From a virus: 64,000 nt of DNA. The notes under the pieces are model-generated. The model did not search any database and was not told where the DNA came from. It saw only the letters and a list, made by a program, of their open reading frames with translations. Location: IMG/VR virus record IMGVR_UViG_3300037502_000580, positions 23,452 through 87,451 of that record; one strand, written 5' to 3'. Shown piece after piece: positions 1,552-63,682 of the stretch (positions are counted from its first letter, which is position 1; every line of letters starts with the position of its first letter). Made by a program: the position numbers and the translations under genes.

Positions 1552-1835
1552 TTCCATTCCCCTATGAGATCCCTACCCTCATCGGTAACTGCAATGTAGT
1601 GACAACGCTCGTCCTGGCCTCTAACCCGAACATCCTTCACGTACTTGCGCCGCTTCAGCCTAGCCACGTACTTATGTGTAGTAGCCTGACTGGAGATCTT
1701 TTCCCGCAAGGCATCGTTGACTAACGTTTGAGTCAGCACCTCTTTGGGGTATGTGGTCATCTGCTCCAAGAGCATCAACTCTTTAAAATCTAACTTCTTT
1801 TCCTTAATGAATTTGAACGCTTGCATCGGTGTCAT
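1548..1835 (-). CDS. MarR-like winged-helix protein
   Basis: SQATTHKYVARLKRRKYV...DERCHYIAVTDEG pattern. Confidence 0.65.
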   Translation of the reverse strand: MTPMQAFKFIKEKKLDFKELMLLEQMTTYPKEVLTQTLVNDALREKISSQATTHKYVARLKRRKYVKDVRVRGQDERCHYIAVTDEGRDLIGEWK

Positions 1836-2029
1836 TTCAGTAAAACTCCTCTAACGTATCGTTTATTACGGGATACCAGCACATCTTTAACTAACCCGGC
1901 TTTGATTAAGGCCACCATAGCTGCTCGTGCCGTATCGGTAGTGCAATCCATACGCTCTGCAATGTCCCATGCAGTGACCGGGGTCTTGCGGGTACGTAGA
2001 TACGGTAGAAGTTTGTCTGCCACACTCAT
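1832..2029 (-). CDS. Small winged-helix protein
   Basis: TAWDIAERMDCTTDTARAAMVALIKAGLV pattern. Confidence 0.65.
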   Translation of the reverse strand: MSVADKLLPYLRTRKTPVTAWDIAERMDCTTDTARAAMVALIKAGLVKDVLVSRNKRYVRGVLLK

Positions 2030-2223
2030 CAGAACGGTGCCTCTTCACAAGTAACCTTTGTCAGTTTTTGCTTTTCCTGGCTTGCAAAGTACTTCTGGAC
2101 TAGCTTTCTTTCTTCCGGCGTCTTGAAGGGCCAATCCCATCTGTCCATCGTAAGGCCCGAGGGGTGCATATGTTGTGGGAAATTTTTCAAGTGGTGGGGC
2201 TTCGCTGTTTCCTGTGATTGCAT
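2029..2223 (-). CDS. Hypothetical protein (WDWPFKT...EEAPF)
   Basis: 3' part of ORF 2029..2418; stop overlaps the next start. Confidence 0.5.
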   Translation of the reverse strand: MQSQETAKPHHLKNFPQHMHPSGLTMDRWDWPFKTPEERKLVQKYFASQEKQKLTKVTCEEAPF

Positions 2224-2479
2224 GTTTAAGCATCGCTTCCTTGAGTCGTGTCCGTTCAACATCTTGGTAGTACTCTCGTATCGCCCAAGACACAAATTTA
2301 GATTCCAATTTCGTAAGTGCCATTTTTGATATGTCTGATCCGTTAGTGGATAACACTCTCCTGCGTATAAAGAACTCAGGCAGGCGACCACTCTCATACA
2401 ACACCCGTAGCTCACCACAAAACAGACTATCTGGCAAGTAGCTAAAGGCTTTTAGTAAAAATTTGACCGGCATTATCAA
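2045..2479 (-). CDS. Hypothetical protein
   Basis: ORF with GGAGG RBS upstream; 3' end overlaps 2029..2223. Confidence 0.5.
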   Translation of the reverse strand: MIMPVKFLLKAFSYLPDSLFCGELRVLYESGRLPEFFIRRRVLSTNGSDISKMALTKLESKFVSWAIREYYQDVERTRLKEAMLKHAITGNSEAPPLEKFPTTYAPLGPYDGQMGLALQDAGRKKASPEVLCKPGKAKTDKGYL

Positions 2480-2509
2480 GTGATCGCCTCCATACTGTTA
2501 GGTTGAGGT

Positions 2510-2719
2510 TTACGCCAGCTTGCGGGGCCGCCCCGGCTTGCGCTTAGCGGGTTTGGCTGGACTTGTCACGTTGTGACGGGCTAATACGTGGGCGAACTCG
2601 TCTTTAGTTACAGGTTGCCATGCTGTTGCCTTGTTAGCTGTACGCACCTGGGTCTCAAGCCCATCGGCGTAGCGGCATAGCGCCTCAATAATGATCTCGT
2701 ATCGCGTCTTTTCATTCAT
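2510..2719 (-). CDS. Small protein with C-terminal AT-hook-like motif
   Basis: KRKPGRPRK at C-terminus; GAGG RBS. Confidence 0.65.
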   Translation of the reverse strand: MNEKTRYEIIIEALCRYADGLETQVRTANKATAWQPVTKDEFAHVLARHNVTSPAKPAKRKPGRPRKLA

Positions 2720-2774
2720 CTTTTTATCCTCTCAGGGAACTGGTTTCAGGTGTTCATCGCAAAATTTACGCACG

Positions 2775-2800
2775 AAAAAAATCCCAGCGTATAGCTGGGA
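2775..2800 (-). terminator. Rho-independent terminator
   Basis: Minus strand TCCCAGC-TATAC-GCTGGGA followed by T7. Confidence 0.75.
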
Positions 2801-2937
2801 CTGGGCAGTTTCTGAAAAGTTCCGTCACATTGTGACGATTAGGCGAATAAAAATAGGTGTGGGGTCAACTCTCTGGAGACACGGAAAATGATCTAACCGT
2901 AAAAGGAAAGCCCCCCACTGCGGGTGTTGTTCGCATG

Positions 2938-3252
2938 TCAACACGTCACCTCCCGCTGGACGCCACCGCTATCAATTCTGTCCAACAACTCAATAAGGTT
3001 TGTTATGTCCTCCCGCACGACGAGAGCCTCGCCCCCGGCATTACGAATATCCTGTAAATGTTTATCCTGCAGGGCTGTAGTTTGCCCCTTACCTGCTTTG
3101 CACTCAATACCTACAAACCTACCCTTGTAGCAAACCAAGATGTCGGGGACGCCTGCATTGCCAAACCCACCAGCAACCGGCATGGCATAGTAAGCGCCCC
3201 GCTCCTTGAGAAGTTTAGTTACTCGGGCTTTGACTTTCGCTTCTGGGGTCAA
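2938..3252 (-). CDS. VRR-NUC family nuclease
   Basis: TPEAKVK...GVPDIL...GIECKAGKG...Q motif; TTG start 9 nt after GGAG. Confidence 0.9.
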   Translation of the reverse strand: MTPEAKVKARVTKLLKERGAYYAMPVAGGFGNAGVPDILVCYKGRFVGIECKAGKGQTTALQDKHLQDIRNAGGEALVVREDITNLIELLDRIDSGGVQREVTC

Positions 3253-4174
3253 CGAAGTTATCTCCAATCAGCACATACGCATTACACATAGTGCCTTGAA
3301 TCATACCGACACCCGGAACGCTCATGTCTCTGCTTGTCGTGGGTACTATATCTAAGACAGCCATGGAGCCAAGAATATCCGCAGGGAGATTACTTTTCCC
3401 GATAACCTTGTCGAACAAATAGTCTTTGCTACCGTTTGTCACAATGTGACGAACAACTGTGAACTTCTCACCAGGAGACTCGACAACGAGAACGCTGTGC
3501 TTCATAAGTTCTGCACGCGCAGCCTTGGCTTCGTCTATCTTGGCAAAGGCTTCTTCAAAGCAACGCTTGATAGACTTACCCTCAACCGTCTCGATGCCAT
3601 CACCCCCACACAAAAGGCTACGCATGACCCGAGTCTGCGTCTCAGCGTTCATGTAATACAACTTACGCACGAGATTGTCTATCTCACTCTCGCTCTTAGT
3701 GAACTCCGAACTCTTGTCGATGAATGTACTCGCATTACTCTTTAAGTACTCAGCCAGTGAGGACTGTGCTGTCGGTCGAAGCGCGTGAACATACTTATGT
3801 ATAGCGTTCCGATCCAGCGTACGCCTGACATTGAACGGACGACGGGTCTGCACATCGTAGTCAAACCGAATCTGCAACTGTGGTTTTTTCCTCTCGCTAC
3901 CATCGGGCCTGTGAATACAGAAGCCACCAACATCTTTGTACTCACTGAAGATAACGACATCGCTGATGCGTCGCCGGTCTGAATCAAAATTAACACGATC
4001 AAAACTGACACGCACAAAGAACTCATCATTCTTGGGGTGGGTAAGCAATGCCTCCATACCCGTACGCATCAACATGTTCTCCTCTGACACATCAAGGTCT
4101 GGACGCCCAAAGATAGCCCTCACGGTCTGGATAGTAATGGGGCAAATCATTTCCTGCTCGGCTGCTTGTCGCAT
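3215..4174 (-). CDS. Hypothetical protein (319 aa)
   Basis: Long ORF with AAGGAG RBS. Confidence 0.8.
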   Translation of the reverse strand: MRQAAEQEMICPITIQTVRAIFGRPDLDVSEENMLMRTGMEALLTHPKNDEFFVRVSFDRVNFDSDRRRISDVVIFSEYKDVGGFCIHRPDGSERKKPQLQIRFDYDVQTRRPFNVRRTLDRNAIHKYVHALRPTAQSSLAEYLKSNASTFIDKSSEFTKSESEIDNLVRKLYYMNAETQTRVMRSLLCGGDGIETVEGKSIKRCFEEAFAKIDEAKAARAELMKHSVLVVESPGEKFTVVRHIVTNGSKDYLFDKVIGKSNLPADILGSMAVLDIVPTTSRDMSVPGVGMIQGTMCNAYVLIGDNFVDPRSESQSPSN

Positions 4175-4185
4175 TGTGACACTCC

Positions 4186-5082
4186 TTAGAATGAAAACTT
4201 GTTGATGATGTCGTTGACACGGGCATGCACATCAGTGCGAACCAGCACAGACTCACGAAGATCTTTAGCCGTGATGCCTAGCATGGCCTGCTCCAACTCT
4301 CGGCGTGCCTCCTCCAGTCGTGGGTCGTTCGCAATGTTTAGCGAAGACAGGAGCGCACACATCTCCTGCGTGTTGGTAACGAGCGAGTCACGGAATACTT
4401 TCTTCTCCCCACCATCATCAACAGCCAAACGCTCAGAAAGATGTTTAAGGGTGGTGTGCAGTCTGTCCCACACATCCTGCATCGCCTCCTGCATCTTGGC
4501 CTGGAAGTGCGTCTCGTACTGCGCGGTCAACTCTGCCTGCATCTCGTTGCTCACATCAACACGGAAGTCACCGGACGACGGCAGTGGGTAGTAGTTCACA
4601 TTGAAGTAGAACTTGCGATCCACCTCGGACTGCGTTGGGTACTCGTCTGCGTTAAACATGTCACCGAGTTCAAAGGCAACCGCAGACTTTAGCGTCGGGT
4701 AGACTGTCACAAAGTGACGCTTCAAGTCGTGCAGTTCGGTTAACTTCTCATTGGCTATCGTCACATAGTTCAGATAGTTCTTCATTGGCAGAAGACGGAT
4801 GCCGCTATCCAGCCAGGGTATAGTCTGCGTGTAGTGCCAATTACGAAACGCGCCGACTGCCTTCTTCAGGTCGTCATGCTCTTTGACCCCAGGCAATAAG
4901 TTCTTACTGTAATTACCAGCACGGCTCTTGGCGTTCTTGTTCTGCGCCACCTCCTCAGACACAGCGCGGTCAGTCTTACGGGCCTGCCAGAACCCGATGT
5001 TGAGTTCGACAAGCATTGATTGGTTAATCATTGCGGTTACGTTGCTTGGGTTCAAGCTCATGTTTGTTTGCGTGGTTTGCAT
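4186..5082 (-). CDS. DUF3150-like protein commonly found with phage AAA/vWA loci
   Basis: W.ARKTD..VS.EV, TIPW.D.G.RLLP, YP..SEV..KF, LNI.NDP.LE motifs. Confidence 0.6.
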   Translation of the reverse strand: MQTTQTNMSLNPSNVTAMINQSMLVELNIGFWQARKTDRAVSEEVAQNKNAKSRAGNYSKNLLPGVKEHDDLKKAVGAFRNWHYTQTIPWLDSGIRLLPMKNYLNYVTIANEKLTELHDLKRHFVTVYPTLKSAVAFELGDMFNADEYPTQSEVDRKFYFNVNYYPLPSSGDFRVDVSNEMQAELTAQYETHFQAKMQEAMQDVWDRLHTTLKHLSERLAVDDGGEKKVFRDSLVTNTQEMCALLSSLNIANDPRLEEARRELEQAMLGITAKDLRESVLVRTDVHARVNDIINKFSF

Positions 5083-5096
5083 GGTTCTCTCCAGAG

Positions 5097-6317
5097 TTAA
5101 AGTTTGATTACCTTGCCGGGGAAGTTCCCGACCCTACCTTTACTGCTAATCACCCAGACCGTAGGCGGCATGCCGCTCCAGTCACCTACATCACCAACCT
5201 CTCCATCAGTAAAGATGACCAAAGCCTGACTTGTCACTTTGTGACAGAGCATGTACTCCCTAACGCAACCAACTGTCGTGCCTCCACCTCCTTCCGGTTT
5301 AGTAGACTGCGGGATGCTGTCTATCTGATCTTGCGTATAGATCTCGTGCTTGCACACTGTCGTGTCCCAATACAGCAGATGAATCTTCTCGGGCTGCACT
5401 ATCTTGCAGATGCCCACCAACTCAGAGAGGAACTCGATAAGTTCAGACTGCCCGATAGATCCTGACATGTCAGTGGCAATCGTTATCGACTCCATCGACT
5501 CCGAGATCGATGTTGGCATGTACATGTCCTGAGACACGAACCTTCTGTTAGGACGCCGCCATGACGAGTCACTGCGTGCGGCACATGTTGAGATCATGAA
5601 TTCCCTAAGAAGTTCATACGGGTTAAGTTTAGGTTCCAACAAGTCAGCGAAGTCTCGTTGTCCACCCGAGCCAGCCTCTCCCTTCTTCTTAAGTAAGATC
5701 TCGCCTTGCCGGAGCGCCTGATCAATCTTGCGCTCAACTTCCTTGCGCTCCTCTTCATTCCAAGACTCTGCACTTTGCCAATCGTGTTCATCAAACCCTC
5801 CGCTGTTATCGCCATCACCGTCGTCACCATCATCGCCGTCGTCGCCGTCGTCGTCGCCGTCATCTTCATCTTGTTCCTGCATTAAGATGTCAAAGACTTG
5901 TCGGGCATCCATACCCTCAAACCGCTTGTCCATGCACCCATTCGCAGGCATCTGGGCAACTTCTCCATACGGGTCGTACTTAGTGATCTGCAGGTTGATG
6001 ACATGATCGCAGGCGGCATTGGCGATCTTGGGGTTCTGCTCGTAGAGGTTGCGCCACACCAGCATATGTTTGTAGGCCTTGTGCCAATTCTCATGCAGCA
6101 CCAGGAAGTTCAACTCTTTGTCGGTCAGACTTGTCACAAAGTGACGCCCGTACTGAGTGTTCAGCCCGTCAGTCCGTGCTGTCATCTTGGGGTTGTCCAC
6201 GACCTCGGTCTTGCCAGAGACAAGAATCCCCGACATAAGAATAAACTTCTTATGCGCCATGAGCGTCACATGCGCTCTGTGCAGGCGTTGTTCAGCCGTT
6301 AGTTTTGAAAGATCCAT
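5097..6317 (-). CDS. DUF2201-type metallopeptidase (HExxH) fused to vWA-like domain
   Basis: TARTDG, LHENWH, ANAACDHVIN; acidic linker; SWRRPNRR; DMSGS (MIDAS) and GGGGT, FTDG motifs. Confidence 0.9.
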   Translation of the reverse strand: MDLSKLTAEQRLHRAHVTLMAHKKFILMSGILVSGKTEVVDNPKMTARTDGLNTQYGRHFVTSLTDKELNFLVLHENWHKAYKHMLVWRNLYEQNPKIANAACDHVINLQITKYDPYGEVAQMPANGCMDKRFEGMDARQVFDILMQEQDEDDGDDDGDDGDDGDDGDGDNSGGFDEHDWQSAESWNEEERKEVERKIDQALRQGEILLKKKGEAGSGGQRDFADLLEPKLNPYELLREFMISTCAARSDSSWRRPNRRFVSQDMYMPTSISESMESITIATDMSGSIGQSELIEFLSELVGICKIVQPEKIHLLYWDTTVCKHEIYTQDQIDSIPQSTKPEGGGGTTVGCVREYMLCHKVTSQALVIFTDGEVGDVGDWSGMPPTVWVISSKGRVGNFPGKVIKL

Positions 6318-6331
6318 CTGTATCTCCTCAA

Positions 6332-6724
6332 TTAATTAACACGAAGTATCGTGATCTCAGTTCTGTCTGCATTGAATTCAGTCAGGTAGTTCTTAGACCC
6401 AAACAATCTACGACCCGAATTGCACACGACCGAACGCATAGTGTCTGGGTGGTACTTGCATGGGATAGTCGCTGTCTGCCCAGGCTCAAGCGGGGCGATG
6501 TACTCATTAACATACTCAGACGGCTCACCCCTCTTTGCTTCAGGGTTGCGGGTTGCGACACGCGCAGGCTTCTCCTTCTTTTTCTTCTGCGGTTCGATGA
6601 CCCCATCGGGGTCATGCACGATAACTTCTCCGTCAGCCAGCACGACTTTGAACGAGGCTCCGCTGTTGCGTAGGAAGGCGAGTTGCGTCTCGGTTGCTTT
6701 ACGAACGATGCTTGTGATTGCCAT
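6332..6724 (-). CDS. Hypothetical basic protein between ATPase and vWA-peptidase genes
   Basis: ORF with GAGGAG RBS. Confidence 0.75.
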   Translation of the reverse strand: MAITSIVRKATETQLAFLRNSGASFKVVLADGEVIVHDPDGVIEPQKKKKEKPARVATRNPEAKRGEPSEYVNEYIAPLEPGQTATIPCKYHPDTMRSVVCNSGRRLFGSKNYLTEFNADRTEITILRVN

Positions 6725-6744
6725 GACTGTATCTCCTCAATTAG

Positions 6745-7815
6745 TTAGCGTGCTTTGGCAAAGATGTAGTTATTGCGTGTGGCCCAGTCAATGAATGACG
6801 CATGGCCTGCCGCCTTGGCGTTGTCAGACTCAAGTAGTGAACGCGCAAATACGCCTTGGTTCTCTTTGGGTAGACGCTCAAGGTAGATCATCCAGCGTTC
6901 GATGTTCTCGCGCTTAACATGTAAGACAGCCTTGTAGGTCATGATGCAGTTCGCCACGGGGTCACTCGGTATGCTTATGCCATGCGGGTCAGCGAGAATA
7001 GAATCGAAGGTCGGCATCTTGTCATCCAGGTTGATGAACGCATGCAGAGACCGCGCACCAGACTCGCCAATCGAACCGATCAAGGCTGCAAGCATTGGCT
7101 CATCACCGATTAACTTGCGCTTCTTCACGATGTTGGATGCCTTCTCAAACGAACGCGGAGAACAGAAGGCTGTCTGGACTTCTTTAGGGTTGAAGATGTA
7201 CTGGTTCTTGGCCTGGCTGGGGTCAAGATAGGAAGCCATGGTCTCGGGGTACTGATCAACGAACGCGATAACTTGTTCTGTCACGTTGTGACGGATCGCC
7301 CACTTGATCCACTCTTCAGCCGTGGGCTTACGGAAATTGACCACAGCCATACGGTTCTGGGCGTGCGCTTTGAGATGATCGCCTACGCCATCCTGCGACA
7401 GATTGCCCGTGGCAAAACGCAAAGACCCCTCGGGTAAGTAAGTGTCACCGATGCGCCCCTCAAGTAAGAGAGGCAATAACATGTTCTGCACAGACTGCGA
7501 TGCTTTGGTCAGCTCGTCCAGCATAAGAATGACGGGCCTGCCCGTGTGCAGTTTGAAGTGTGCGTTTGGATAATATCGCGTGCAGTTCAACTCTCTGTCG
7601 ATGAACGGCATTGCAATGTCGCCCAGGTCAAGGTTCGCGCAGTCGATGTACGCTACCTCGTGATCGGGGAATAACTTAGCAAGATCTTTGAGCATGGATG
7701 ACTTGCCAACACCAGGCTCGCCACGGAAAAGAATCGTGTCGGTCTGGCCCAGGTTTGCCACCATGGCAACGGCTTGCTCGTGATTTACGGAAGTTCCAAA
7801 TGTGATAGTACCCAT
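6745..7815 (-). CDS. MoxR/dynein-related AAA+ ATPase
   Basis: Walker A GEPGVGKS, Walker B ILMLDE, ATGN sensor, SPRS motif. Confidence 0.9.
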   Translation of the reverse strand: MGTITFGTSVNHEQAVAMVANLGQTDTILFRGEPGVGKSSMLKDLAKLFPDHEVAYIDCANLDLGDIAMPFIDRELNCTRYYPNAHFKLHTGRPVILMLDELTKASQSVQNMLLPLLLEGRIGDTYLPEGSLRFATGNLSQDGVGDHLKAHAQNRMAVVNFRKPTAEEWIKWAIRHNVTEQVIAFVDQYPETMASYLDPSQAKNQYIFNPKEVQTAFCSPRSFEKASNIVKKRKLIGDEPMLAALIGSIGESGARSLHAFINLDDKMPTFDSILADPHGISIPSDPVANCIMTYKAVLHVKRENIERWMIYLERLPKENQGVFARSLLESDNAKAAGHASFIDWATRNNYIFAKAR

Positions 7816-7867
7816 GATGCGTAATGCTCCTTAAGATGTTAGAAAGATAAAACACAGGAATAAAAAA

Positions 7868-7898
7868 TAAAAACAAAAACAAAACAAAACAAAACAAC
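7868..7898. repeat. (AAAAC)n microsatellite in leader of AAA ATPase gene
   Basis: taaaaacaaaaacaaaacaaaacaaaacaac. Confidence 0.8.
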
Positions 7899-7986
7899 TA
7901 CATCTACCGCCTACATCTGCCGTCACAATGTGACAGCCCCAGCCATACATCAACAACTTAATAGACAAATCTATAACCTACCCTTA

Positions 7987-8015
7987 TTGGACAAGAAAAG
8001 CCGAACAAAAGTTCC
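7987..8015 (-). promoter_or_regulatory. SigmaE/AlgU-type ECF promoter
   Basis: Minus strand GGAACTT-TTGTTCGGCTTTTCTT(16)-GTCCAA then TAAGGGTAGG. Confidence 0.75.
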
Positions 8016-8031
8016 CTACCCCTGAAATGTT

Positions 8032-8217
8032 TCAGGTTACATTCAGGAAGTCTTGACCGAACCATCCACTGCTCCCATCGGCAAAGGCGATCTTGTAGTA
8101 GATGTTGTTGCCGAACCATTCCCACTCGACTACTAGTCCGGCATCATCAATGCCACGCACATCTACGACCTCGCCCACATTAAACATCTGCCCGATGTCA
8201 CTTTGTGACACGCTCAC
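8032..8217 (-). CDS. Small SH3/KOW-like hypothetical protein
   Basis: FNVGEVVDV...YYKIAFADGSSGWF; AGGAGG RBS. Confidence 0.6.
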   Translation of the reverse strand: MSVSQSDIGQMFNVGEVVDVRGIDDAGLVVEWEWFGNNIYYKIAFADGSSGWFGQDFLNVT

Positions 8218-8220
8218 CTC

Positions 8221-8367
8221 CTAATAAGAAAGCATCATCAGAATCATGTAGGCCAGGAACGCAGCAAAGGCAAGACCAAGAACGCCTAAGAAGTCAAGGA
8301 ACACTGCCCTAAATTCCTTTGCCCGACGAATACGCCTACGCCTTTCGATTGAGTTGATTGAAGTCAT
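8221..8367 (-). CDS. 48-aa membrane protein (not in ORF track)
   Basis: Hand translation MTSINSIERRRRIRRAKEFRAVFLDFLGVLGLAFAAFLAYMILMMLSY; fills the gap with an ATGA overlap. Confidence 0.6.
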   Translation of the reverse strand: MTSINSIERRRRIRRAKEFRAVFLDFLGVLGLAFAAFLAYMILMMLSY

Positions 8368-8576
8368 ACATCTCCCCCTTTTTCTCCGCGTGAATAGATC
8401 GTGTCCATCGTCTCTGCTACGAACGACAGGGCAATGCGCTTCTCAGTGCCACTACGAAACGCCGCCACAGCCAGCACGAACGCTAGTGCTGGTATCACTT
8501 GATCGATATGGTGACCATTGAGCGCCTCATCTATCTGCATGAGTAGGCGCTTGTACTTCTTATCGTCTATTTCCAT
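8364..8576 (-). CDS. Hypothetical protein
   Basis: Start moved to MEIDDKK after GGAGG. Confidence 0.6.
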   Translation of the reverse strand: MEIDDKKYKRLLMQIDEALNGHHIDQVIPALAFVLAVAAFRSGTEKRIALSFVAETMDTIYSRGEKGGDV

Positions 8577-8580
8577 TTCC

Positions 8581-8883
8581 CTACCTCCATGTCCTATGCG
8601 TCTCCGCAACATGCTCCATCCCGTCGTACTCCTCGACGAACCACTCCACGCCATCCGGCACAGAGAGAACCTTCAACTCGGCGTAGTTACCATTGGCCCT
8701 ATCGCCTAACTCCTCAACGACTGCCACCAGATCGGCATCGTCGCGGGGCAGGAAATACTCCAGGGTCGCCTTGGCCTCATCGTTGTCCTCGTAGTTCTCA
8801 CCCTTGCGAATCGCTAACATCTTTATGGCAAGGTCAGACAGTCCGAACCCGCCATAGCATCTATTAACCACGACTTTCTGCAT
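8581..8883 (-). CDS. Conserved phage protein (KVVVNRCYGGFGLS...EYDGMEHV family)
   Basis: Recognisable widespread phage motif. Confidence 0.8.
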   Translation of the reverse strand: MQKVVVNRCYGGFGLSDLAIKMLAIRKGENYEDNDEAKATLEYFLPRDDADLVAVVEELGDRANGNYAELKVLSVPDGVEWFVEEYDGMEHVAETHRTWR

Positions 8884-8884
8884 C

Positions 8885-8968
8885 TCAAATCCCCCACACA
8901 TTTAAAAGAATCAGCCCACCGCACACGGTCAGCACTAGGAAATAAAAAATAAAGATCATCTGTCCCAT
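8885..8968 (-). CDS. 27-aa hydrophobic peptide
   Basis: MGQMIFIFYFLVLTVCGGLILLNVWGI after AAGGAG. Confidence 0.5.
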   Translation of the reverse strand: MGQMIFIFYFLVLTVCGGLILLNVWGI

Positions 8969-8978
8969 CTCGTTCTCC

Positions 8979-9290
8979 TTATGGTCTACCATCAGCGCCA
9001 ACCCAACCCATGCCGACATAGTCGCTAGGGTCTTCGTAGTTCTCAACCATGTCCATGTGGTCAGCGATTGTCCACACGGGCTTCTGCTTGCCGTCGAACC
9101 CGAACGCTCTCCACTTGTACAACGCGAACGGCACACATGACTTATGCTCTCCTCCTTTCATGGCATTAATCAATCGCCAATTCCAATGATCTGTTACTCG
9201 GTTGGAATGGTTGTATGCCCATGTCCATGGTTGTGGTCGTTTGCATGTCCACGGCTGTGGGCGCTTGCTGTATCTTTCCGCTCTGTTCAT
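8979..9290 (-). CDS. Hypothetical protein with KRPQPWT duplication
   Basis: ORF from MNRAERY. Confidence 0.55.
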   Translation of the reverse strand: MNRAERYSKRPQPWTCKRPQPWTWAYNHSNRVTDHWNWRLINAMKGGEHKSCVPFALYKWRAFGFDGKQKPVWTIADHMDMVENYEDPSDYVGMGWVGADGRP

Positions 9291-9291
9291 C

Positions 9292-9549
9292 TCACACCGC
9301 CTTTCCGTCACTTTGTGACACCTCACGAAGCCTCTGAACCAAGGCCACCAAACTCTCATCTATGCAGTCGTCATCACCGAACGCGCCCATGTCACCGTCG
9401 AACAAGGCAAGGAACTCGGCACACTCACCGCTAACTTCTTCAGCCGTGGCCTGCAGTATCTGCTCATCGCGGTTGTCGTCCTGAACCAGCAACGCAAGGG
9501 CATACGCCCGCTCTAACATCTCAATCAATCTATCCATACTCTCGTCCAT
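9292..9549 (-). CDS. Acidic hypothetical protein
   Basis: ORF in operon. Confidence 0.6.
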   Translation of the reverse strand: MDESMDRLIEMLERAYALALLVQDDNRDEQILQATAEEVSGECAEFLALFDGDMGAFGDDDCIDESLVALVQRLREVSQSDGKAV

Positions 9550-9550
9550 C

Positions 9551-9847
9551 TCACACCCCCTCGTTGACTAAACCGCCTTTGTTGTTGATGCCCACTGCCG
9601 CCTCGCGTGCGAAGGCAGAAGTGAAGTACATCGCCCCTTGTTTGTGTGGTGTTAAAACACACCATAACTTCCTATCCTGTCTTGCCTGCTCCTCGCCACA
9701 CTCAAGGCACACGCGCTTGCCAATCTGCCACCGGGCGAACTCAATGTAGTCACCGCACATGCGGCACTGCGGATCATTGAAGTCGCGGGTTTCTGGTTGC
9801 TGATGTGTGTGGTGTTGTTGGTACTGCGTTTTGGTTTGCATGCTCAT
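9551..9847 (-). CDS. Zinc-finger protein (DksA/TraR C4-like spacing)
   Basis: CRMC...CLEC; first gene after an ECF promoter. Confidence 0.65.
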   Translation of the reverse strand: MSMQTKTQYQQHHTHQQPETRDFNDPQCRMCGDYIEFARWQIGKRVCLECGEEQARQDRKLWCVLTPHKQGAMYFTSAFAREAAVGINNKGGLVNEGV

Positions 9848-9928
9848 CTCCAGGTTTGCGGGGTGTCACATTGTGACGACCCCAGGGGTTAAAGAAAAAT
9901 CAAACACAAAAACTTATCCCTACCCTTA

Positions 9929-9957
9929 TTGGACAACGAAACCTGATGATAAGTTCC
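9929..9957 (-). promoter_or_regulatory. SigmaE/AlgU-type ECF promoter
   Basis: Minus strand GGAACTT-ATCATCAGGTTTCGTT(16)-GTCCAA then TAAGGGTAGG. Confidence 0.8.
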
Positions 9958-9973
9958 CTAAAGCTGAATTAAA

Positions 9974-10357
9974 TCAAGGACTTACACGACTACCCACCCT
10001 CCTCTTTTTCTCCTCATCAAACAACACCCCGCTGAGCGCCTCGACCACCAGCATCCCCGTGGCTATGCCCATCGAATACCTACCATGCCCACGCCCTGCG
10101 GCATGCAGTCCTCGGTTGATAACTTCTCCTAAATTAAACTGCCGTACCATCTGCCCTACCGACTCCCCCTGCTCATCGAACTCCAGCCGTGCTATCTGTA
10201 AGTTGGGGTTGCACAGCCCGTACTCTTTGACCACACCCGCCAGCACATAGAACGCCTGCGCTTCGTACTCATAGGTGTCAAGTTGTTGTCGTAGCAGGGT
10301 TATTTGTTGTTGCAGTTGGTTTATTTGGTTTATCAGGTCTGCTCGTTCGTCTTTCAT
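9974..10357 (-). CDS. Hypothetical protein with N-terminal coiled coil
   Basis: ORF with ATGA overlap. Confidence 0.65.
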   Translation of the reverse strand: MKDERADLINQINQLQQQITLLRQQLDTYEYEAQAFYVLAGVVKEYGLCNPNLQIARLEFDEQGESVGQMVRQFNLGEVINRGLHAAGRGHGRYSMGIATGMLVVEALSGVLFDEEKKRRVGSRVSP

Positions 10358-11097
10358 TTTCTCCCCCGTATCGCACTGGCGATTAACTCGTCTAGTTTTA
10401 CCCTCAATAACTCAGCCACCACGGCATCGGCTAACTCATCTTCCTTGACCTCCACGGTTCGCAGTGTCTTCATCTCGTCTTTGACTGTCTTCACCTCATC
10501 CTTTAGTGCCCTGAGTTCCAGCTTTAGTTCCTTGATGTTGTCGAGAATCTGCTGACCCAGGCTGATCTTGGGGGCTATGTTGTTTGGGTTAGTTGCGTGG
10601 GTTGCGCCAGGGGTTGCGTTGCCCGTTGCGCCGGGGGTTGCGTGTTCTTGATTCAGTGGATCCTGCTCTAACTTCTCATTGACTCGCCTGTTGTGCTTGG
10701 TGCGCGGCCCCTCGGATAGTTGGCAGTGGGCGGGGTTCACACACAAGGGGTTGCGGCATACCCGTGTGATGCGCCCAAGGGTTGCGGGGTCTTGGTGCAG
10801 GAGGGTGTTCAGGCGTTTGAAGATGTAAGAGTGCGCGGGGTAATTCATGTACCGGGCGGAGCCTTGGTTCTTGTCGGTTGCGCCTTGCCATTCCCAGCAG
10901 GGGAGGCCTTTGGTTTGGGGGGTGAGTTTGGCGGCAAGGGCCAGCTTCACGGGGTCTGTCACGATGTGACAGTTCTGCCGAACCCAGGCGAGGAACTCGC
11001 TCTTTTGGGGGTCTGATAATGGTTGATCATCGCGTAGGGGAATTCCGGCACGGTCGATGAATTTGGGGTGTGGGGTGGTTTGGGGGACGAAACGCAT
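10354..11097 (-). CDS. HNH-like (His-Me finger) protein with C-terminal coiled coil
   Basis: CWEWQGA...AHSYIF...RVCRNPLCVNPAH. Confidence 0.7.
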   Translation of the reverse strand: MRFVPQTTPHPKFIDRAGIPLRDDQPLSDPQKSEFLAWVRQNCHIVTDPVKLALAAKLTPQTKGLPCWEWQGATDKNQGSARYMNYPAHSYIFKRLNTLLHQDPATLGRITRVCRNPLCVNPAHCQLSEGPRTKHNRRVNEKLEQDPLNQEHATPGATGNATPGATHATNPNNIAPKISLGQQILDNIKELKLELRALKDEVKTVKDEMKTLRTVEVKEDELADAVVAELLRVKLDELIASAIRGRK

Positions 11098-11130
11098 GGG
11101 GTGGACTCCGTGAGTGTGGGGGGAAAAGGG

Positions 11131-11158
11131 TTCGACAGGGGAGGCGTGGGGAAGTTCC
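11131..11158 (-). promoter_or_regulatory. Probable sigmaE-type promoter (15-nt spacer)
   Basis: Minus strand GGAACTT-N15-GTCGAA, 33 nt upstream of the HNH-like gene. Confidence 0.55.
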
Positions 11159-11162
11159 AGCG

Positions 11163-11470
11163 TGGTTTACAGATTGTAAACGATAGGGTAAATGGGGTGG
11201 GTGTTGTAATTTTGCGTCATAAATTTCTTTAATTTACTTATATATTACTAATTTGTTTGAGCTGAACATTATTATATTACCTTTTTTCTAAATTTCCGAG
11301 GAAAATCATGCGCGGAGCAAAAAATACCCCTTTTTTACGGTTTACAATCTGTAAACCAACGAAACGACATTTTTGGGAACGCCAAAACTGCCGGAAAAAA
11401 AGAAAAAAGGTAATATAATAGTAGTGTAGTAGTAGTAGTATAGTAATATATAAGTAAATTAATGAAATTT
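11163..11470. repeat. AT-rich nested inverted repeats, candidate replication origin
   Basis: 11221-11250/11441-11470 (29/30 match), 11270-11289/11401-11420 (20/20), 11163-11181/11340-11358 (19/19). Confidence 0.85.
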
Positions 11471-11643
11471 AATATCTCCTAAGCAATGCTTGTGCCAACT
11501 TTCGGGGGAGTGTCACAAAGTGACAAAAAAACTGCTTTTTTGCGGTTGATGGCGAGAATTCGTGCGATACCAGTTCCCCCTGCAAAGGGCCATGGATCCC
11601 TGCGGGTAAGATGTTCATGGGTGTGTCACATTGTGACAGGCGC

Positions 11644-11670
11644 AAAAAAACCCCAGGTGTTGCCTGGGGT
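11644..11670 (-). terminator. Rho-independent terminator
   Basis: Minus strand CCCCAGG-CAACA-CCTGGGG then T7. Confidence 0.8.
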
Positions 11671-11688
11671 GTTAAGGGTTGGGGTTGC

Positions 11689-12267
11689 TTAGACTGCTTC
11701 TTTGAGGAGTCCGTCTTCGATTGCCGCTTCTTCGATATCGGGCCACATGGTCAACAGGTTCTCGACCGCCTGGGGTTCGCACTGCGACAGGTGATTGCGG
11801 AGAACACGCAACGCTTCCGCTACTTTGTCATAGGATGTTGTACCCGAACCCGTCCCTGGCGCCGCTTCCCTAGGCGTGTACCGATCTAGCCCTAAGATCT
11901 CAACGCAGTAGGTCAAGAATCGGCTGTACTGCTCACGCGGATTACCGCCTGATTCCGAACGCGCCTTGACACGCTCGACGATTGCCGTCTTGATACCCTG
12001 GGCGTATTCCTTGTGGGTCTTCGCCTGTTCAGAGTTCTCCGATTTCAGGAAATCGACCGCACGCTTCGCTTCCTTGACGATTGCCGGATCACGCTTGCTC
12101 AGCATCGCGTAGTGGATCCACTCAGACCCGAACAGGTTGATTGCCTCGTGGGCGGAAGCACGCCACTGCGCCTTGATTGATTCTCTTGCCTGGGACTCGA
12201 TATCGAGAGCCTGGTCAACGATAGCGGCGAACACTGCGAACTTCTCAACGGTTGTTTGAACTTGCAT
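11689..12267 (-). CDS. Unknown early protein, paralog A (192 aa, MQVQTT...)
   Basis: ATG 12267 with GGAG RBS; about 70% identical to 13019..13603. Confidence 0.9.
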   Translation of the reverse strand: MQVQTTVEKFAVFAAIVDQALDIESQARESIKAQWRASAHEAINLFGSEWIHYAMLSKRDPAIVKEAKRAVDFLKSENSEQAKTHKEYAQGIKTAIVERVKARSESGGNPREQYSRFLTYCVEILGLDRYTPREAAPGTGSGTTSYDKVAEALRVLRNHLSQCEPQAVENLLTMWPDIEEAAIEDGLLKEAV

Positions 12268-12338
12268 TTTTGAATCTCCTGGTAAGATGTCACAATGTGA
12301 CAGGGTTGGTTTAACATCATTACTGCGTCCTACCCTTA

Positions 12339-12367
12339 TAAGACAATGAAACCTGGTGATAAGTTCC
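12339..12367 (-). promoter_or_regulatory. SigmaE/AlgU-type ECF promoter
   Basis: Minus strand GGAACTT-ATCACCAGGTTTCATT(16)-GTCTTA then TAAGGGTAGG; palindrome abuts the -35. Confidence 0.75.
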
Positions 12368-12511
12368 GTCACAGTGTGACAAGTCCAGGCGCAACTGGCG
12401 AGGCATTGCTGGGTGATGGCGAGAATTCGTACGATACCAGTTCCCCCCGCGCAGGGCCGGTGCATGCAGGCAGTGTCACATTGTGACGGGTCAGTGCAAG
12501 AATTTCGGGCG

Positions 12512-12538
12512 AAAAAAAAACCCGCCGATTGGCGGGTT
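12512..12538 (-). terminator. Rho-independent terminator
   Basis: Minus strand CCCGCC-AATC-GGCGGG then T9. Confidence 0.8.
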
Positions 12539-12556
12539 ATGTGGAGGGGGGCGGAC

Positions 12557-12778
12557 CTAGATTTTAAAGAGGGTTCCCCGTCTGAGGTTCCCGTATCTGA
12601 TCATGATATCGGTAAACCCATCTGCCTTCAGTGCCTCAGTATCGCGGGAGCTGAGGTATCCGTGAACCTTCATACTCTCGGCCTTGAAATCTTTCCCGGC
12701 CTGCCAATCTGCCATGGCTTCCTTCGCGTTTTTGTAGTCACGGCCATATGCGGGGGATACAGTTAAAAGGTTAATCAT
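12557..12778 (-). CDS. Small phage protein (PAYGRDYK...DWQAGKDF)
   Basis: Start moved to MINLL after AGGAG. Confidence 0.7.
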   Translation of the reverse strand: MINLLTVSPAYGRDYKNAKEAMADWQAGKDFKAESMKVHGYLSSRDTEALKADGFTDIMIRYGNLRRGTLFKI

Positions 12779-12803
12779 TGTTTTCTCCTGAGATGTTAAA
12801 GGG

Positions 12804-12959
12804 TTAAAACCAAACTTCATCTTGCACACCATCACGGAGGCAGAAGGTCTCGCATGCGTCTGCAATGACCCCGAGGTTCCCGATGATGGGCAGATGGGCG
12901 ATGAAATTAAAAAGATATCCGATGGGTGATTTCAGAAATGAAACGATATGTTTTTTCAT
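12804..12959 (-). CDS. 51-aa hypothetical protein (not in ORF track)
   Basis: Hand translation MKKHIVSFLKSPIGYLFNFIAHLPIIGNLGVIADACETFCLRDGVQDEVWF; GGAG RBS. Confidence 0.55.
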   Translation of the reverse strand: MKKHIVSFLKSPIGYLFNFIAHLPIIGNLGVIADACETFCLRDGVQDEVWF

Positions 12960-13018
12960 GGCTAAATTCTCCGATTAGGGTTAAGACCCCCGTCACGATG
13001 TGACGGGGGGAAGGGTTA

Positions 13019-13603
13019 CTACACCGACTCTTTCAGAAGGCCATCAGTCACTGCGGCTTCTTCAATGTCTGCCCACATCTCTAGGACATTCTCCACGGCC
13101 TGAGGTTCACATTGGGGCAGGTGGTTTCTCAGGACACGCAAGGCCTCTGCGACTTTATCGTATGAGGTGGTGCCTGAACCTGTGCCGGGGGCTTTGGCCT
13201 CTTTCGGCACATAGACATCAGTCAGGCCTGCGGCCTCCACCGCATAGGCCAGAAACCGACTCCATTGTTCGCGGGGATTTCCGCCATCCTCTGAACGGGC
13301 CTTCACGCGATCAGTCACTGCGGCCTTGATGCCTGAGGCATACTCTTTAATCGTTTTATAGGTCTCAGAGTTTACGGCCTTTAACTCTGCCACCTTGCGT
13401 TTGGCAGTCGCGGCAATGGCCTCATCGCGTTTGGAAAGCATGGCGATGTGAATCCATTCATTACCGAATAGATCGATGGCCTTGTGTGACATGTCACGCC
13501 ATGCGGCCTTAATCGCGGCAGAGGCCTCAGACTGAAGGTCAAGGGTAGCGTCAACAATGGCGCCGAAGGATACTAGCTTTTCGTTTGTCGTTTGTACTTG
13601 CAT
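13019..13603 (-). CDS. Unknown early protein, paralog B (194 aa, MQVQTT...)
   Basis: ATG 13603 with GGAG RBS; paralog of 11689..12267. Confidence 0.9.
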   Translation of the reverse strand: MQVQTTNEKLVSFGAIVDATLDLQSEASAAIKAAWRDMSHKAIDLFGNEWIHIAMLSKRDEAIAATAKRKVAELKAVNSETYKTIKEYASGIKAAVTDRVKARSEDGGNPREQWSRFLAYAVEAAGLTDVYVPKEAKAPGTGSGTTSYDKVAEALRVLRNHLPQCEPQAVENVLEMWADIEEAAVTDGLLKESV

Positions 13604-13673
13604 TTTTAAATCTCCAGAAGGTGTCACATCGTGACGGGTTAAGGGTTACTAAGGTTTTCTGCCCTAGTGACGG

Positions 13674-13702
13674 TTGGACAATGAAAGCCGGGGATTAGTT
13701 CC
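13674..13702 (-). promoter_or_regulatory. SigmaE/AlgU-type ECF promoter (first promoter of the early arm)
   Basis: Minus strand GGAACTA-ATCCCCGGCTTTCATT(16)-GTCCAA. Confidence 0.7.
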
Positions 13703-14033
13703 CTGACATGTCACGATGTGACGGGGTACCGGACGGGGGCACCCCCCGCCAGCGAGGGGGGGATGGAGCCTCATGACATATTAAACCGCACGACCAATCT
13801 CAACTTTTTCAAACTCCCCCCTCCCCTATGTTAGTCTTCGCTAACTTACCCGTACCCCCCATTTCCCCTAATACCACCCCCTTGTTTTCTGCTGGAGTCC
13901 CGGCTCCTTCGGTGCTATATTTTTCTGGGGTAGGTAGTCGGCGCGGCGACTCTAAACAGCCCGTAGCTCCTTTGGCTGGGTGCAAATGTAAAAATCCTAC
14001 CCCCCTACTATTTTTTGTGTTTATAATCCGCGC

Positions 14034-14657
14034 ATGCAACTACTTGAACCGGAAGTAGGCGTGGACGTTCCAGAGTCCAACTTTAATTTTCAAGACGTAT
14101 ACGAGAAAGCTCGTATCGCGTGCAATACTGCTTTGGAATTAAACCAACGTGGTATGCCTATCGAGATCGATAAAGAAGATGAACTCTTTGCTGAGAGGAT
14201 CATCAAGGAAGAGATCTCAATCCCCACCAACTACAATTTCTCTGCTGGTACCGCAGTAAAACTCGGCGCACTGCTGCAAGAGTACGACGTGCAGGTTGCC
14301 AAAAGTGCTGCCCAGTTACGTACCGTCTCCACTAACAAACTCATAGAAATGCTAGACGACCCAGACCCCAAGGTCAGGCTTAAGGCTATTGAGTTAATCG
14401 GCAAGATTGCTGACGTGGGTCTCTTTGCTGAGAGAACCGAGATAACCATAAATCACAAGTCAACTATCGAGTTGCAGCAGGAGTTGGCTAAGTTAGTAAG
14501 TGACTATGTGGATGTGGAAACCAAGTTAGTAACAAGTGACACGGAGGAAGAAGAGGAAGAAGATGGGGCACCACGAGAAGAGGAAGAAAGAGAGAGCGCT
14601 GGCACGCAAGAAGGAGATGCAGAAGCTGCTAGAGACGAAACTGAGGAAGACAAGTGA
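14034..14657 (+). CDS. terS: Probable terminase small subunit
   Basis: Directly upstream of and overlapping TerL; RLKAIELIGK...VGLF motif. Confidence 0.6.
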   Translation: MQLLEPEVGVDVPESNFNFQDVYEKARIACNTALELNQRGMPIEIDKEDELFAERIIKEEISIPTNYNFSAGTAVKLGALLQEYDVQVAKSAAQLRTVSTNKLIEMLDDPDPKVRLKAIELIGKIADVGLFAERTEITINHKSTIELQQELAKLVSDYVDVETKLVTSDTEEEEEEDGAPREEEERESAGTQEGDAEAARDETEEDK

Positions 14658-16177
14658 TGGGGGCCAACGAGACCCAGAACCTCCTCGACCCGGAGATTCT
14701 CAAAAAGATCATCCCAAAGCTGCCGCCTGAGAAGCAGATCGCTGCCAAAGTTCTCATAGAGGAACTCAAAAACCGCAAGTACAAACAACTTGCACAGAGT
14801 AACTTTCTCACCTTTGTAAAACATGTTTGGCCTGAGTTCATACATGGCAAGCACCATGAGATCATGGCTGATGCGTTTGAGAGAGTTGCCAGGGGTGAGT
14901 TAAAGAGGCTCATCATCAACATGCCACCACGGCATACAAAATCTGAGTTTGCCTCTTACCTGCTTCCATCTTGGTTCCTGGGTAAGTTCCCACAGAAGAA
15001 GGTCATACAGACCTCGCACACGGCTGAGCTTGCTACAGACTTCGGTCGTAAGGTGAGAAACCTTGTGGACAATCCGATGTACAAAGAAGTGTTTACGAGT
15101 GTTGCACTGCAATCAGACTCAAAGGCCGCTGGGCGATGGAACACAAACCACGGCGGTACGTACTTCGCTATTGGTGTGGGAGGCGCGGTAACAGGTAAAG
15201 GTGCTGACCTGCTGATTATTGACGACCCGCACTCAGAACAAGAAGCCATACTGGCGGAAGTTAACCCAGACATATACGATAAGGTCTACGAGTGGTACTC
15301 CTCAGGGCCACGGCAGCGTCTGCAGCCAGGGGGAGCTATTGTCATCGTTATGACCAGATGGTCAAAGAGAGACCTGACGGCACAGGTAGTTAAGGCCTCT
15401 GTGCAGCGTGGGGGAGATGAGTGGGAGGTCATTGAGCTTCCCGCGATACTGCCAAGTGGCAAGTCTTTGTGGCCCGAGTTCTGGAGTCTGGATGAGTTAA
15501 GCGCTCTGAAAGAAGAACTTCCGGTGCATAAATGGATGGCGCAGTACATGCAAGCGCCTACCGGAGCAGAAGGTGCGCTGATAAAGAAGGAGTGGTGGCA
15601 GACCTGGGAGCATGAAGACCCCCCATCTTGTGAATACATAATCCAGTCTTGGGATACGGCGCATACAAAAAGTACGCGGTCAGACTATTCTGCCTGTATA
15701 ACGCTGGGCATATTCACAACCGAGGATGCAGGGCCACAAATTATTCTGATTGATGCTTTTAAAGACCGGCTGGAGTTTCCAGAGTTAAAAGCCAAGGCGC
15801 TTGAGAAATACAAAGAGTTCCAGCCAGACTGCTGCATTATTGAGGCCAAGGCGGCAGGGGCACCCCTTCTACAAGAGTTAAGGCGCATGGGCATACCGAT
15901 TCAGGACTATACGCCGGTGCGTGGGAACGATAAGATTACTAGGGTCAATGCGGTAGCGGATCTATTTGCCTCAAAAATGATCTGGGCACCGAAGATGCGT
16001 TGGGCTGAAGAAGTTATAGAGGAGTTTGCATCTTTCCCCGCTGGGGAGCATGATGACTTGGTTGACGCTATGACACAGGCGTTACTTAGATTTAGGCAGG
16101 GCGGTCTAGTTCGCCTACACAGTGACGAGCCTGATGAGCCACGGGAGTTCAGGCGTCGGGGCAAAGCATATTACTAG
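14654..16177 (+). CDS. terL: Terminase large subunit
   Basis: MPPRHTKS Walker A-like, LLIIDDP Walker B, SWDTA and HDDLVDA RNase H-like nuclease motifs. Confidence 0.95.
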   Translation: MMGANETQNLLDPEILKKIIPKLPPEKQIAAKVLIEELKNRKYKQLAQSNFLTFVKHVWPEFIHGKHHEIMADAFERVARGELKRLIINMPPRHTKSEFASYLLPSWFLGKFPQKKVIQTSHTAELATDFGRKVRNLVDNPMYKEVFTSVALQSDSKAAGRWNTNHGGTYFAIGVGGAVTGKGADLLIIDDPHSEQEAILAEVNPDIYDKVYEWYSSGPRQRLQPGGAIVIVMTRWSKRDLTAQVVKASVQRGGDEWEVIELPAILPSGKSLWPEFWSLDELSALKEELPVHKWMAQYMQAPTGAEGALIKKEWWQTWEHEDPPSCEYIIQSWDTAHTKSTRSDYSACITLGIFTTEDAGPQIILIDAFKDRLEFPELKAKALEKYKEFQPDCCIIEAKAAGAPLLQELRRMGIPIQDYTPVRGNDKITRVNAVADLFASKMIWAPKMRWAEEVIEEFASFPAGEHDDLVDAMTQALLRFRQGGLVRLHSDEPDEPREFRRRGKAYY

Positions 16178-63519: not shown

Positions 63520-63682
63520 TGTTCTTCTCCTTTGGGTATTCCGTCCACGCGCCGGGCCGTTCTCCGCTAACCATCAGCTTTGGTAACGTCAGCGTTTGAA
63601 TTAGTAGCGCATTTTGTTTGACGATCATCGTGTTGATTTCAAGAATTCTTTGTATCTGGTCTTGCGTCATGGACTCATCCAC
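63512..63682 (-). CDS. Small hypothetical protein (not in ORF track)
   Basis: Hand translation MDESMTQDQIQRILEIN...; AGGAG RBS. Confidence 0.5.
   Translation of the reverse strand: MDESMTQDQIQRILEINTMIVKQNALLIQTLTLPKLMVSGERPGAWTEYPKEKNNG

Follow-up and report, generated by a model that had tools for sequence, protein, structure and literature searches.

The IMG/VR virus record IMGVR_UViG_3300037502_000580 contains a stretch of 64,000 nucleotides (nt), positions 23,452 to 87,451 and hereafter called the window, in which a single 15-bp palindrome, YGTCAC-N3-GTGACR, is repeated throughout an 11-kb early arm next to the gene for the small terminase subunit (terS). The repeat is genuine and under strong selection, and it has not been described before in this group of phages. 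When written in five forms, the motif had no match in the literature, and a keyword search of the literature also gave nothing relevant. Many relatives bear a palindrome of their own in the same arm which, judged from the contigs compared, is a general trait of a large uncultured phage group. The finding is thus widened from a single odd genome to a rule for a group with >600 relatives in IMG/VR, recognized by the large terminase subunit (terL), of which we fetched 80. Our preferred, if tentative, reading is that the palindromes are double-stranded DNA sites of a dimeric, phage-specified protein that co-evolves with them, and that they form a multi-operator regulon, comparable to stoperators and to the operators of KorB, by which the early arm would be silenced or autoregulated.

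An exact scan of the window for the core, GTCAC-N3-GTGAC, gave 20 perfect matches between positions 2565 and 13,722, all of them inside the early arm. The expected number is 0.06, and none of 100 shuffled sequences contained 20. Allowing one mismatch added the copy at 4168 and nothing else, and neither scan found any copy in the other 50 kb of the window. The core is preceded by a pyrimidine and followed by a purine in 20/20 perfect copies, giving the full 15-bp unit, and 19 of them have A or T at the center of the loop. The bases of the loop show no strand bias and are unconstrained. In all these respects (coordinates, one-mismatch copy, flanks, AT-rich center, non-random count and absence from the other 50 kb) the scans agree with the preliminary description, which had been made from the letters by eye. 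The peptide footprints that it had listed for the nine intragenic copies are likewise exact: RHNVT twice, RHIVT, RHFVT twice, CHKVT, CHIVT and VSQSD twice. The densest stretch, with eight copies between 11.5 and 13.7 kb, is the head of the arm beside terS. Its terS-side end is formed by the copy at 13,710, which immediately precedes the first leftward promoter and is separated from the start of terS (14,034) by ~320 nt. The rise in density toward this end and the position of this copy at the strand switch before terS had already been noted. The whole 87,451-bp record contains a single further copy, at record position 18,071, in the helicase gene of a second strain represented in the record (see below).

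The strongest evidence for selection comes from G1, a 23-kb relative that was reached by a pattern scan of viral contigs and whose proteins are 39–86% identical to those of the window. In G1 the palindrome occurs 18 times, always in the same arm; the other 12.5 kb are free of it, and the motif domain of G1 stops in the same small gene as that of the window. Conservation of synonymous positions had been proposed as a check on the intragenic copies, and it was found: in the genes shared by the two phages, 6/6 intragenic sites are at identical codon positions. Changes at these six sites are limited to the free center or to the Y/R flank, and all 12 fixed bases are kept, the synonymous ones included, although third-codon identity between G1 and the window in the site-bearing genes is only 0.39–0.63. 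By our own arithmetic, the chance of keeping all 18 fixed synonymous positions is ~8 × 10^-6, and we therefore conclude that the nucleotide sequence of the palindrome is itself under selection. Within the reach of this alignment, purifying selection on the sites at the nucleotide level is shown.

The sites are also placed non-randomly with respect to genes and promoters (Table 1). The −35 elements of P1 and P2, two of four near-identical leftward promoters of the sigmaE/AlgU type, are each abutted by one palindrome, and at 4/4 of these promoters a palindrome is centered ~37–52 nt past the inferred start, usually 19–32 nt before the start codon. Three palindromes lie behind T-runs or terminators, one precedes the last terminator, two overlap start codons, and the remaining sites are found within longer genes. 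Coding sequence makes up 83% of the motif domain, yet only 9/20 sites are intragenic (P = 1 × 10^-4), and this preference for intergenic sites holds across all motif-bearing relatives. Counted with the one-mismatch copy (20 + 1), the set includes 11–12 sites that are intergenic or at gene boundaries, the placement expected of stoperator-type sites. Spacing is more even than random, with a largest gap of 1147 bp against 2007 bp expected (P = 0.008) and a coefficient of variation of 0.59 against 0.93 (P = 0.009). Even spacing is seen as well in G1 and L105, and in the richest lineages, and is lacking in several others. Together with the sites within long genes, the even spacing suggests that coverage of the arm matters.

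The even spacing would be better explained by the main rival to our reading, in which the palindromes serve to mark a domain or to load a protein. The bound protein would then spread, bridge or slide in the manner of ParB/KorB or MatP, coating or compacting the early arm to protect first-entering DNA, to anchor it or to organize it for ejection or packaging, and control of transcription would be secondary. This is consistent with the strict confinement of the sites, in the window and in three other genomes (G1, G006 and G008), to a single contiguous arm, and also with the spacing, the peak in density at the terS end of the arm, and the presence of sites in long genes at a cost to protein sequence. 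A precedent is RK2 KorB, which silences distant promoters as a sliding clamp from multiple palindromic OB sites (PMC11790492). Nevertheless, many of our sites are at classic operator positions, several lineages are not evenly spaced, and a six-frame search of the record for ParB_N (PF02195) found nothing at E ≤ 1; we consider this alternative unlikely. The preliminary description had held that domain marking fits better than ordinary operators; the even spacing and the sites within long genes do point to a role for coverage of the arm, but "better" goes too far, given the operator- or stoperator-like placement.

The relatives gave a divided answer to the question of whether the motif is always found in the terS-proximal arm. 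Confinement to the arm is retained, as in G1, but the sequence is not universal. About 17 of the fetched relatives have 4–16 copies of another, lineage-specific palindrome, always upstream of terS/terL: CTAACA-W-TGTTAG (16, 14 and 9 copies), CGTAACA-W-TGTTACG (4 copies), TCGTAC-N-GTACGA (10 and 9 copies), TCATAC-N-GTATGA (12 and 7 copies), the 18-bp AGGTCAGATATCTGACCT (7 copies) and GGTTAC-N5-GTAACC (5 copies). Further palindromes occur besides these six. In two contigs of 45–48 kb, 10/10 and 12/12 copies are packed into 7–8.5 kb. A closer lineage (L050, L051, L054 and L056), with terL 82% and the AAA ATPase 71% identical to those of the window, has no perfect copies of the window palindrome and instead contains 10 RTMAC-N3-GTKAY sites in the same arm, where 0.27 would be expected. 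The site in the AAA gene is offset by 524 nt in this lineage, compared with 522–523 nt in the window. Its half-sites vary independently of each other, and pairing between them is impossible in 8/10 sites.

The motif can change between close relatives. Pairs with 92–93% identical terL can differ in motif (L078/L112, at 93%, and L130/L068), and neither the TCGTAC nor the TCATAC allele is tied to one backbone: each occurs at 46–48% GC as well as at 55–57% GC, on backbones that also differ in terL. The latter distribution is easier to reconcile with an exchangeable phage module than with a host factor, and the differing palindromes of the relatives point to a phage-specified binder that co-evolves with its sites. 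We considered it improbable, and slightly more so than the RNA-level explanation discussed below, that the palindromes mimic the operator of a host regulator, such that the state of the host controls the early genes and lineages differ as their hosts differ. Under that explanation the resemblance of the early promoters to the host sigmaE/AlgU type would be natural, as would the lack of a phage sigma factor in Sigma70_r2 and r4_2 profile searches and the failure of our searches to find a phage-encoded binder. It is opposed by the two alleles on two backbones and by the entirely different motifs of L078 and L112; it leaves 20 evenly spaced copies, including intragenic ones, unexplained, and the motif in its five written forms had no literature match. 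A scan of host genomes, which the preliminary description had proposed, did not yield a host: a search with a double-site pattern matched >120 genome contigs, the majority of them with tandem repeats and from unrelated bacteria, and none had homologues of window proteins.

Several features suggest that what is recognized is double-stranded DNA, bound by a symmetric dimer, rather than an RNA or DNA hairpin, insofar as this can be read from the sites themselves. The arms are invariant, the center is free and there is no strand bias. The independently varying half-sites of the L051 lineage, which are not compensated, argue for a dimeric protein on double-stranded DNA and against a hairpin. The copies upstream of promoters and after terminators favor the same conclusion, as does the lack of any match at the gathering score in an Rfam 15 scan of window positions 1–16,000. 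The earlier suggestion of a site for a dimeric protein is thus probably right, the best reading being a symmetric dimer on double-stranded DNA.

The alternative of an RNA hairpin in polycistronic early transcripts, serving as the target of a translational repressor or of a processing or stability factor, draws on the many copies that lie directly 5′ of Shine–Dalgarno sequences. In several lineages the intergenic copies precede start codons by 9–35 nt and in many cases reach the ribosome-binding site, and in the window one copy overlaps an ATG and another a start codon. However, an invariant stem with a free loop is the opposite of what most hairpin-binding proteins recognize, the mismatched half-sites of the L051 lineage cannot form a stem, and five window copies lie upstream of promoters or past strong terminators, where little sense RNA is expected. 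Variation of the G-U type is not seen, nor is there strand bias or a match to an Rfam family, and intergenic placement is expected of any element that is costly inside genes. The position directly 5′ of ribosome-binding sites keeps an RNA-level role alive, even though costly elements are tolerated there too; all in all we consider it improbable.

A further hairpin-based possibility, that the palindromes are N4-type hairpin promoters (5–7-bp stem, 3-nt loop) or intrinsic terminators or attenuators, appears extremely unlikely. The 6-bp stem and 3-nt loop do equal the geometry of N4 early promoters, and in the unrelated phage G004 (45 kb) this core is followed by a T-run and looks like a terminator. 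In the window, however, the copies lack a T-run, only one is listed by the terminator scan, and that on the non-coding strand, and nine are intragenic. The three strong leftward terminators, at ~12.52, 11.65 and 2.78 kb, are separate hairpins, and the palindromes lie beside rather than within them. With regard to N4, the base at the center of the loop is A, T or G, with no consistent purine on either strand, and no giant virion RNA polymerase was found, the largest open reading frame (ORF; 2395 aa) being DarB-like.

We compared the palindromes with described systems of repeated sites, of which stoperators and the OB sites of KorB come nearest. The stoperators of Cluster A mycobacteriophages are oriented with transcription. 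They are the sites of immunity repressors of the L5 gp71 type (PMC6550527, PMC9283540). In both cases dozens of copies of one short site are found on a phage genome, both at the early promoter and close to gene starts, in short gaps between genes, and the site differs between related lineages. Stoperators are, however, asymmetric, bound by monomers and distributed genome-wide in temperate phages, whereas our sites are perfect palindromes limited to one arm (11 kb of ~64 kb), ~40% of them are intragenic, and we found neither a repressor homologue nor, among the proteins scanned, an integrase. Of the co-variation between consensus and repressor that characterizes stoperators, only the site side is seen: the site differs by lineage, and no co-varying protein was found. 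Plasmid RK2 has 12 OB sites of 13 bp, which abut a −35 element, lie tens to hundreds of base pairs off, or are >1 kb off or inside genes. They are bound by KorB, a CTPase clamp of the ParB family (PMC11790492). The two systems have in common multiple palindromic sites of 13–16 bp, some at promoters and others distant or intragenic, and silencing at a distance, which is only predicted here. They differ in that no ParB_N protein was detected in the record, our element belongs to a phage and not a plasmid, and its sites are limited to one transcriptional arm. The palindromes thus belong to neither system, since they are symmetric and arm-restricted, and neither a ParB-family gene nor an immunity-repressor homologue was found.

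The matS/MatP system of E. coli, reportedly described by Mercier and colleagues in 2008 with the site GTGAC-RNY-GTCAC, resembles ours in having 13-bp palindromes built from the same two pentamers, ~20 copies of which mark a contiguous domain, often intragenically. The order of the half-sites is swapped, and therefore a different DNA surface is presented to the protein; no match in the matS order was found in the window with one mismatch allowed. The earlier statement that the element is not matS, and neither a CRP nor a parS site, holds. The C1 operators of phage P1 are asymmetric and genome-wide, and the lambdoid operators are six, clustered at two promoters. What these and the lambda Cro/CI operators would share with our sites is a sequence-specific repressor with several operators controlling early transcription, a feature predicted here. 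Lambda half-sites (ATCAC) resemble the degenerate half-sites of the L051 lineage.

On our preferred reading, a multi-operator regulon of the early arm, the early units would be transcribed leftward from the four host-type, sigmaE-like promoters, from the terS-proximal strand switch to the terminator at ~2.8 kb. A symmetric dimer specified by the phage, or at least by an exchangeable early-arm module, would bind the 21 palindromes. Bound beside −35 elements, 37–52 nt past transcription starts, at the fronts of cistrons, past terminators and every ~0.5–1.1 kb in long genes, it would repress initiation and block elongating RNA polymerase. The early arm would as a result be autoregulated or shut off in the course of infection.

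Several observations weigh against this reading. The ~40% of sites that are intragenic, and their even spacing, would not be needed for the repression of four promoters. Some relatives are without any scattered palindrome. The apparent lack of an integrase means that lysogenic immunity, the classical driver of operator diversification, may be absent. A Pfam scan of the arm proteins detected no helix-turn-helix or ribbon-helix-helix domain, no arm or post-arm ORF tracks the grouping of relatives by TCGTAC or TCATAC, and of the candidates examined none was supported as the binder. The small winged-helix proteins downstream of the arm (w1832–2029 and w1548–1835) were rejected since no homologues of them were detected in the records of five relatives, including L051.

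The two paralogs at the head of the arm, which the preliminary description had put forward for binding assays, fared poorly as candidates. They form a tiny family, with eight matches in 1.8 billion representatives, and are acidic (isoelectric point 5.3–5.5). The AlphaFold2 model (predicted local distance difference test score of 88) is an all-helical, apparently novel fold, for which Foldseek gave no match at E ≤ 0.001 and VIA gave Z ≤ 5.5, and a profile search of the PDB was empty. No sign of DNA binding emerged from these analyses. Protein-atlas leads are weak (DUF3102 and a phage repressor, at 0.78–0.79). The family is the only one common to all nine loci with NTNAC-AWT-GTNAN motifs, but two distant loci with GTCAC-N3-GTGAC pairs have other head-of-arm genes. 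The paralogs thus remain a weak lead. A heterodimer of diverged paralogs that reads the mixed half-sites of the L051 lineage is contradicted by L055, which has diverged paralogs yet perfect palindromes. Between the head-of-arm families of different motif classes, hhalign shows no homology, and relatives without a motif also have a head-of-arm protein. The conserved 298-aa protein was rejected as well: it has no match in PDB, Pfam or NCBIfam and is also present in motif-less relatives. A Pfam scan of the post-arm region of L051 gave no winged-helix protein. In close pairs with different motifs, no part of the arm has diverged more than the region from terS to the AAA gene. The determinant is probably located there.

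A bolder extension, which we regard as unlikely though worth stating, is that a fast-evolving protein encoded in the arm and the palindromes together act as an identity code of the early arm in lytic phages, marking, at regular intervals, the DNA that is expressed first and perhaps enters first. If so, a phage could silence or protect its own early region, or tell it from that of co-infecting relatives, which would amount to immunity-like specificity without lysogeny and to a binder fold not yet linked to DNA binding. With 4–20 copies of a private palindrome, confined to the arm and present even in coding sequence, many members of the group offer a clean, testable case in which sites and binder would evolve in concert in phages that are apparently lytic, and we know of no described equivalent. 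Of greatest interest is the lineage-specific switching of motifs among relatives, through which the question of the binder becomes directly testable. The binder, once found, would probably turn out to represent a DNA-binding family that is new, or a known one put to a new use, and would also explain the timing or protection of early gene expression in these phages. On the practical side, the motifs are ready markers with which to delimit the early arm in related metagenomic contigs.

The record itself is longer than one genome. Positions 1–23,451 are 65–80% identical in nucleotide sequence to positions 63,674–87,451, and because of this resemblance we consider the record to be a chimera of ~1.37 genome lengths in which two related strains are joined. 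The genome proper would measure ~63.7 kb, about as much as the window, although the record is rated "100% complete". From 13.6 kb leftward, the arm is a single minus-strand unit that diverges from the plus-strand terS, terL and portal genes. It encodes the two paralogs, which are ~70% identical, an HNH-like ORF, a TraR/DksA-like zinc-finger protein, an Hjc-like nuclease, a MoxR-type AAA ATPase, a DUF2201 protein, and conserved proteins of 298 and 319 aa that have no assigned family. The small winged-helix genes lie beyond the arm, and helicase and primase genes lie across the window end. The features of the arm are listed in Table 1.

Table 1. Promoters, terminators, palindromes and the two paralog genes of the early arm, in window coordinates, ordered from the head of the arm leftward.
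Feature	Position	Strand	Remarks
Palindrome	13709..13723	.	head of arm, 5 nt upstream of P1 −35
P1, sigmaE/AlgU-like promoter GAACT-N16-TGTCCAA, drives paralog A	13674..13701	-	pattern match; architecture kept in G1
Palindrome	13622..13636	.	5′ leader of paralog A, ~+38 from inferred start, 19 nt before ATG
Paralog A, 194 aa, first arm gene, without known family	13019..13603	-	
Palindrome	12991..13005	.	gap after paralog A, 32 nt upstream of the ATG of the small ORF that follows
Intrinsic terminator T1, 8-bp stem and T-run	12510..12538	-	
Palindrome	12474..12488	.	immediately past terminator T1
Palindrome	12367..12381	.	overlaps/abuts P2 −35
P2, sigmaE-like promoter, drives paralog B	12339..12366	-	pattern match
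Palindrome	12288..12302	.	leader of paralog B, ~+37, 21 nt before ATG
Paralog B, 192 aa	11689..12267	-	
Intrinsic terminator T2	11641..11670	-	
Palindrome	11624..11638	.	immediately past terminator T2
Palindrome	11511..11525	.	behind T-run, borders AT-rich island
Palindrome, intragenic, CHIVT	10957..10971	.	in HNH-like 247-aa ORF
P3, sigmaE-like promoter	9929..9956	-	pattern match
Palindrome	9864..9878	.	leader after P3, ~+51, 23 nt before ATG of TraR/DksA-like zinc-finger gene
Palindrome, intragenic, VSQSD	9306..9320	.	toward 3′ end of 85-aa ORF
Palindrome, VSQSD	8196..8210	.	overlaps start of 59-aa ORF
P4, sigmaE-like promoter	7987..8014	-	pattern match
Palindrome	7921..7935	.	leader after P4, ~+52
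Palindrome, intragenic, RHNVT	7279..7293	.	halfway along MoxR-like AAA ATPase gene; codon position identical in G1
Palindrome, intragenic, RHFVT	6132..6146	.	DUF2201 gene; same position in G1
Palindrome, intragenic, CHKVT	5232..5246	.	DUF2201 gene; same position in G1
Palindrome, intragenic, RHFVT	4705..4719	.	conserved 298-aa gene; same position in G1
One-mismatch palindrome	4167..4181	.	over ATG of 319-aa gene
Palindrome, intragenic, RHIVT	3437..3451	.	319-aa gene; kept in G1 homologue, 39% identical
Palindrome	2823..2837	.	after Hjc-like gene, just before terminator T3
Intrinsic terminator T3	2772..2802	-	close to end of motif domain
Palindrome, RHNVT, last site	2564..2578	.	within gene for 69-aa basic protein

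The discriminator of the four sigmaE-type promoters is extended and conserved as well (…TGTCCAA-TAAGGGTAGG); the promoters are kept in G1, and one of them in L051. Promoters of the sigma70 type were not enriched. Proteins of the TraR/DksA-like type boost sigmaE-dependent transcription. Between terminator T2 and the HNH-like ORF there is an AT-rich island of nested inverted repeats (11,163–11,470), flanked by the palindromes at 11,512 and 10,958, and no promoter was recognized for the genes just downstream of this island. The 69-aa basic protein (2510–2719), whose gene holds the last palindrome, has an AT-hook-like GRPRK tail, and its homologue in G1 likewise ends the motif domain.

The genes for the MoxR-type AAA ATPase (6745–7815), the DUF2201 protein (5097–6317; metallopeptidase-like and VWA-like) and the 298-aa protein (4186–5082) form a triad that is kept in most of the fetched relatives with enough upstream sequence, palindromes or not. 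The closest isolates with the AAA ATPase are N4-like phages, at ~26% identity. Beyond the arm, a 107-aa protein (1234–1557) matches Rap1a (PF18602, E = 4 × 10^-16), a family of type VI secretion immunity proteins and an unusual cargo for a phage. In the structural module, the 2395-aa protein (48,911–56,098) has a DarB-like C-terminal region (PHROG 10089), and a protein of the Asp/Asn beta-hydroxylase family is encoded near it (45,022–45,921).

No close DNA match to the window was found among isolated phages, and the nearest terL matches are those of Pelagibacter phages HTVC027P/023P and of DSL-LC04, at ~58%. Window positions 9000–16,000 were recognized in ~20 public sequencing runs from 14 studies, in which 41–52% of the sampled words were present; these runs are lake, freshwater, aquatic and subsurface metagenomes and one seawater metagenome. 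Contigs with ~98% identity cover most of the arm, and close strains are for this reason taken to be widespread in freshwater. Such strains of this phage come from lake and other aquatic metagenomes of ~14 studies.

The core of the palindrome is also present in unrelated phages, in other settings. One of these (L043–L045, IMGVR_UViG_3300043084_000056, 45 kb), whose terminase, portal and capsid genes are of the lambda type, bears TGTCAC-W3-GTGACA 13 times in its head-gene module. All are intergenic, with G-U-compatible flanks followed by a T-run, and look like terminators, i.e., the same core in another role. In loci of other phage groups (L007–L036), the same 13-mer occurs in compact arrays resembling ordinary operator or iteron clusters, for example three copies at 45-bp spacing in a group with 35–40% GC and four copies at 22-bp spacing in a group with 70% GC.

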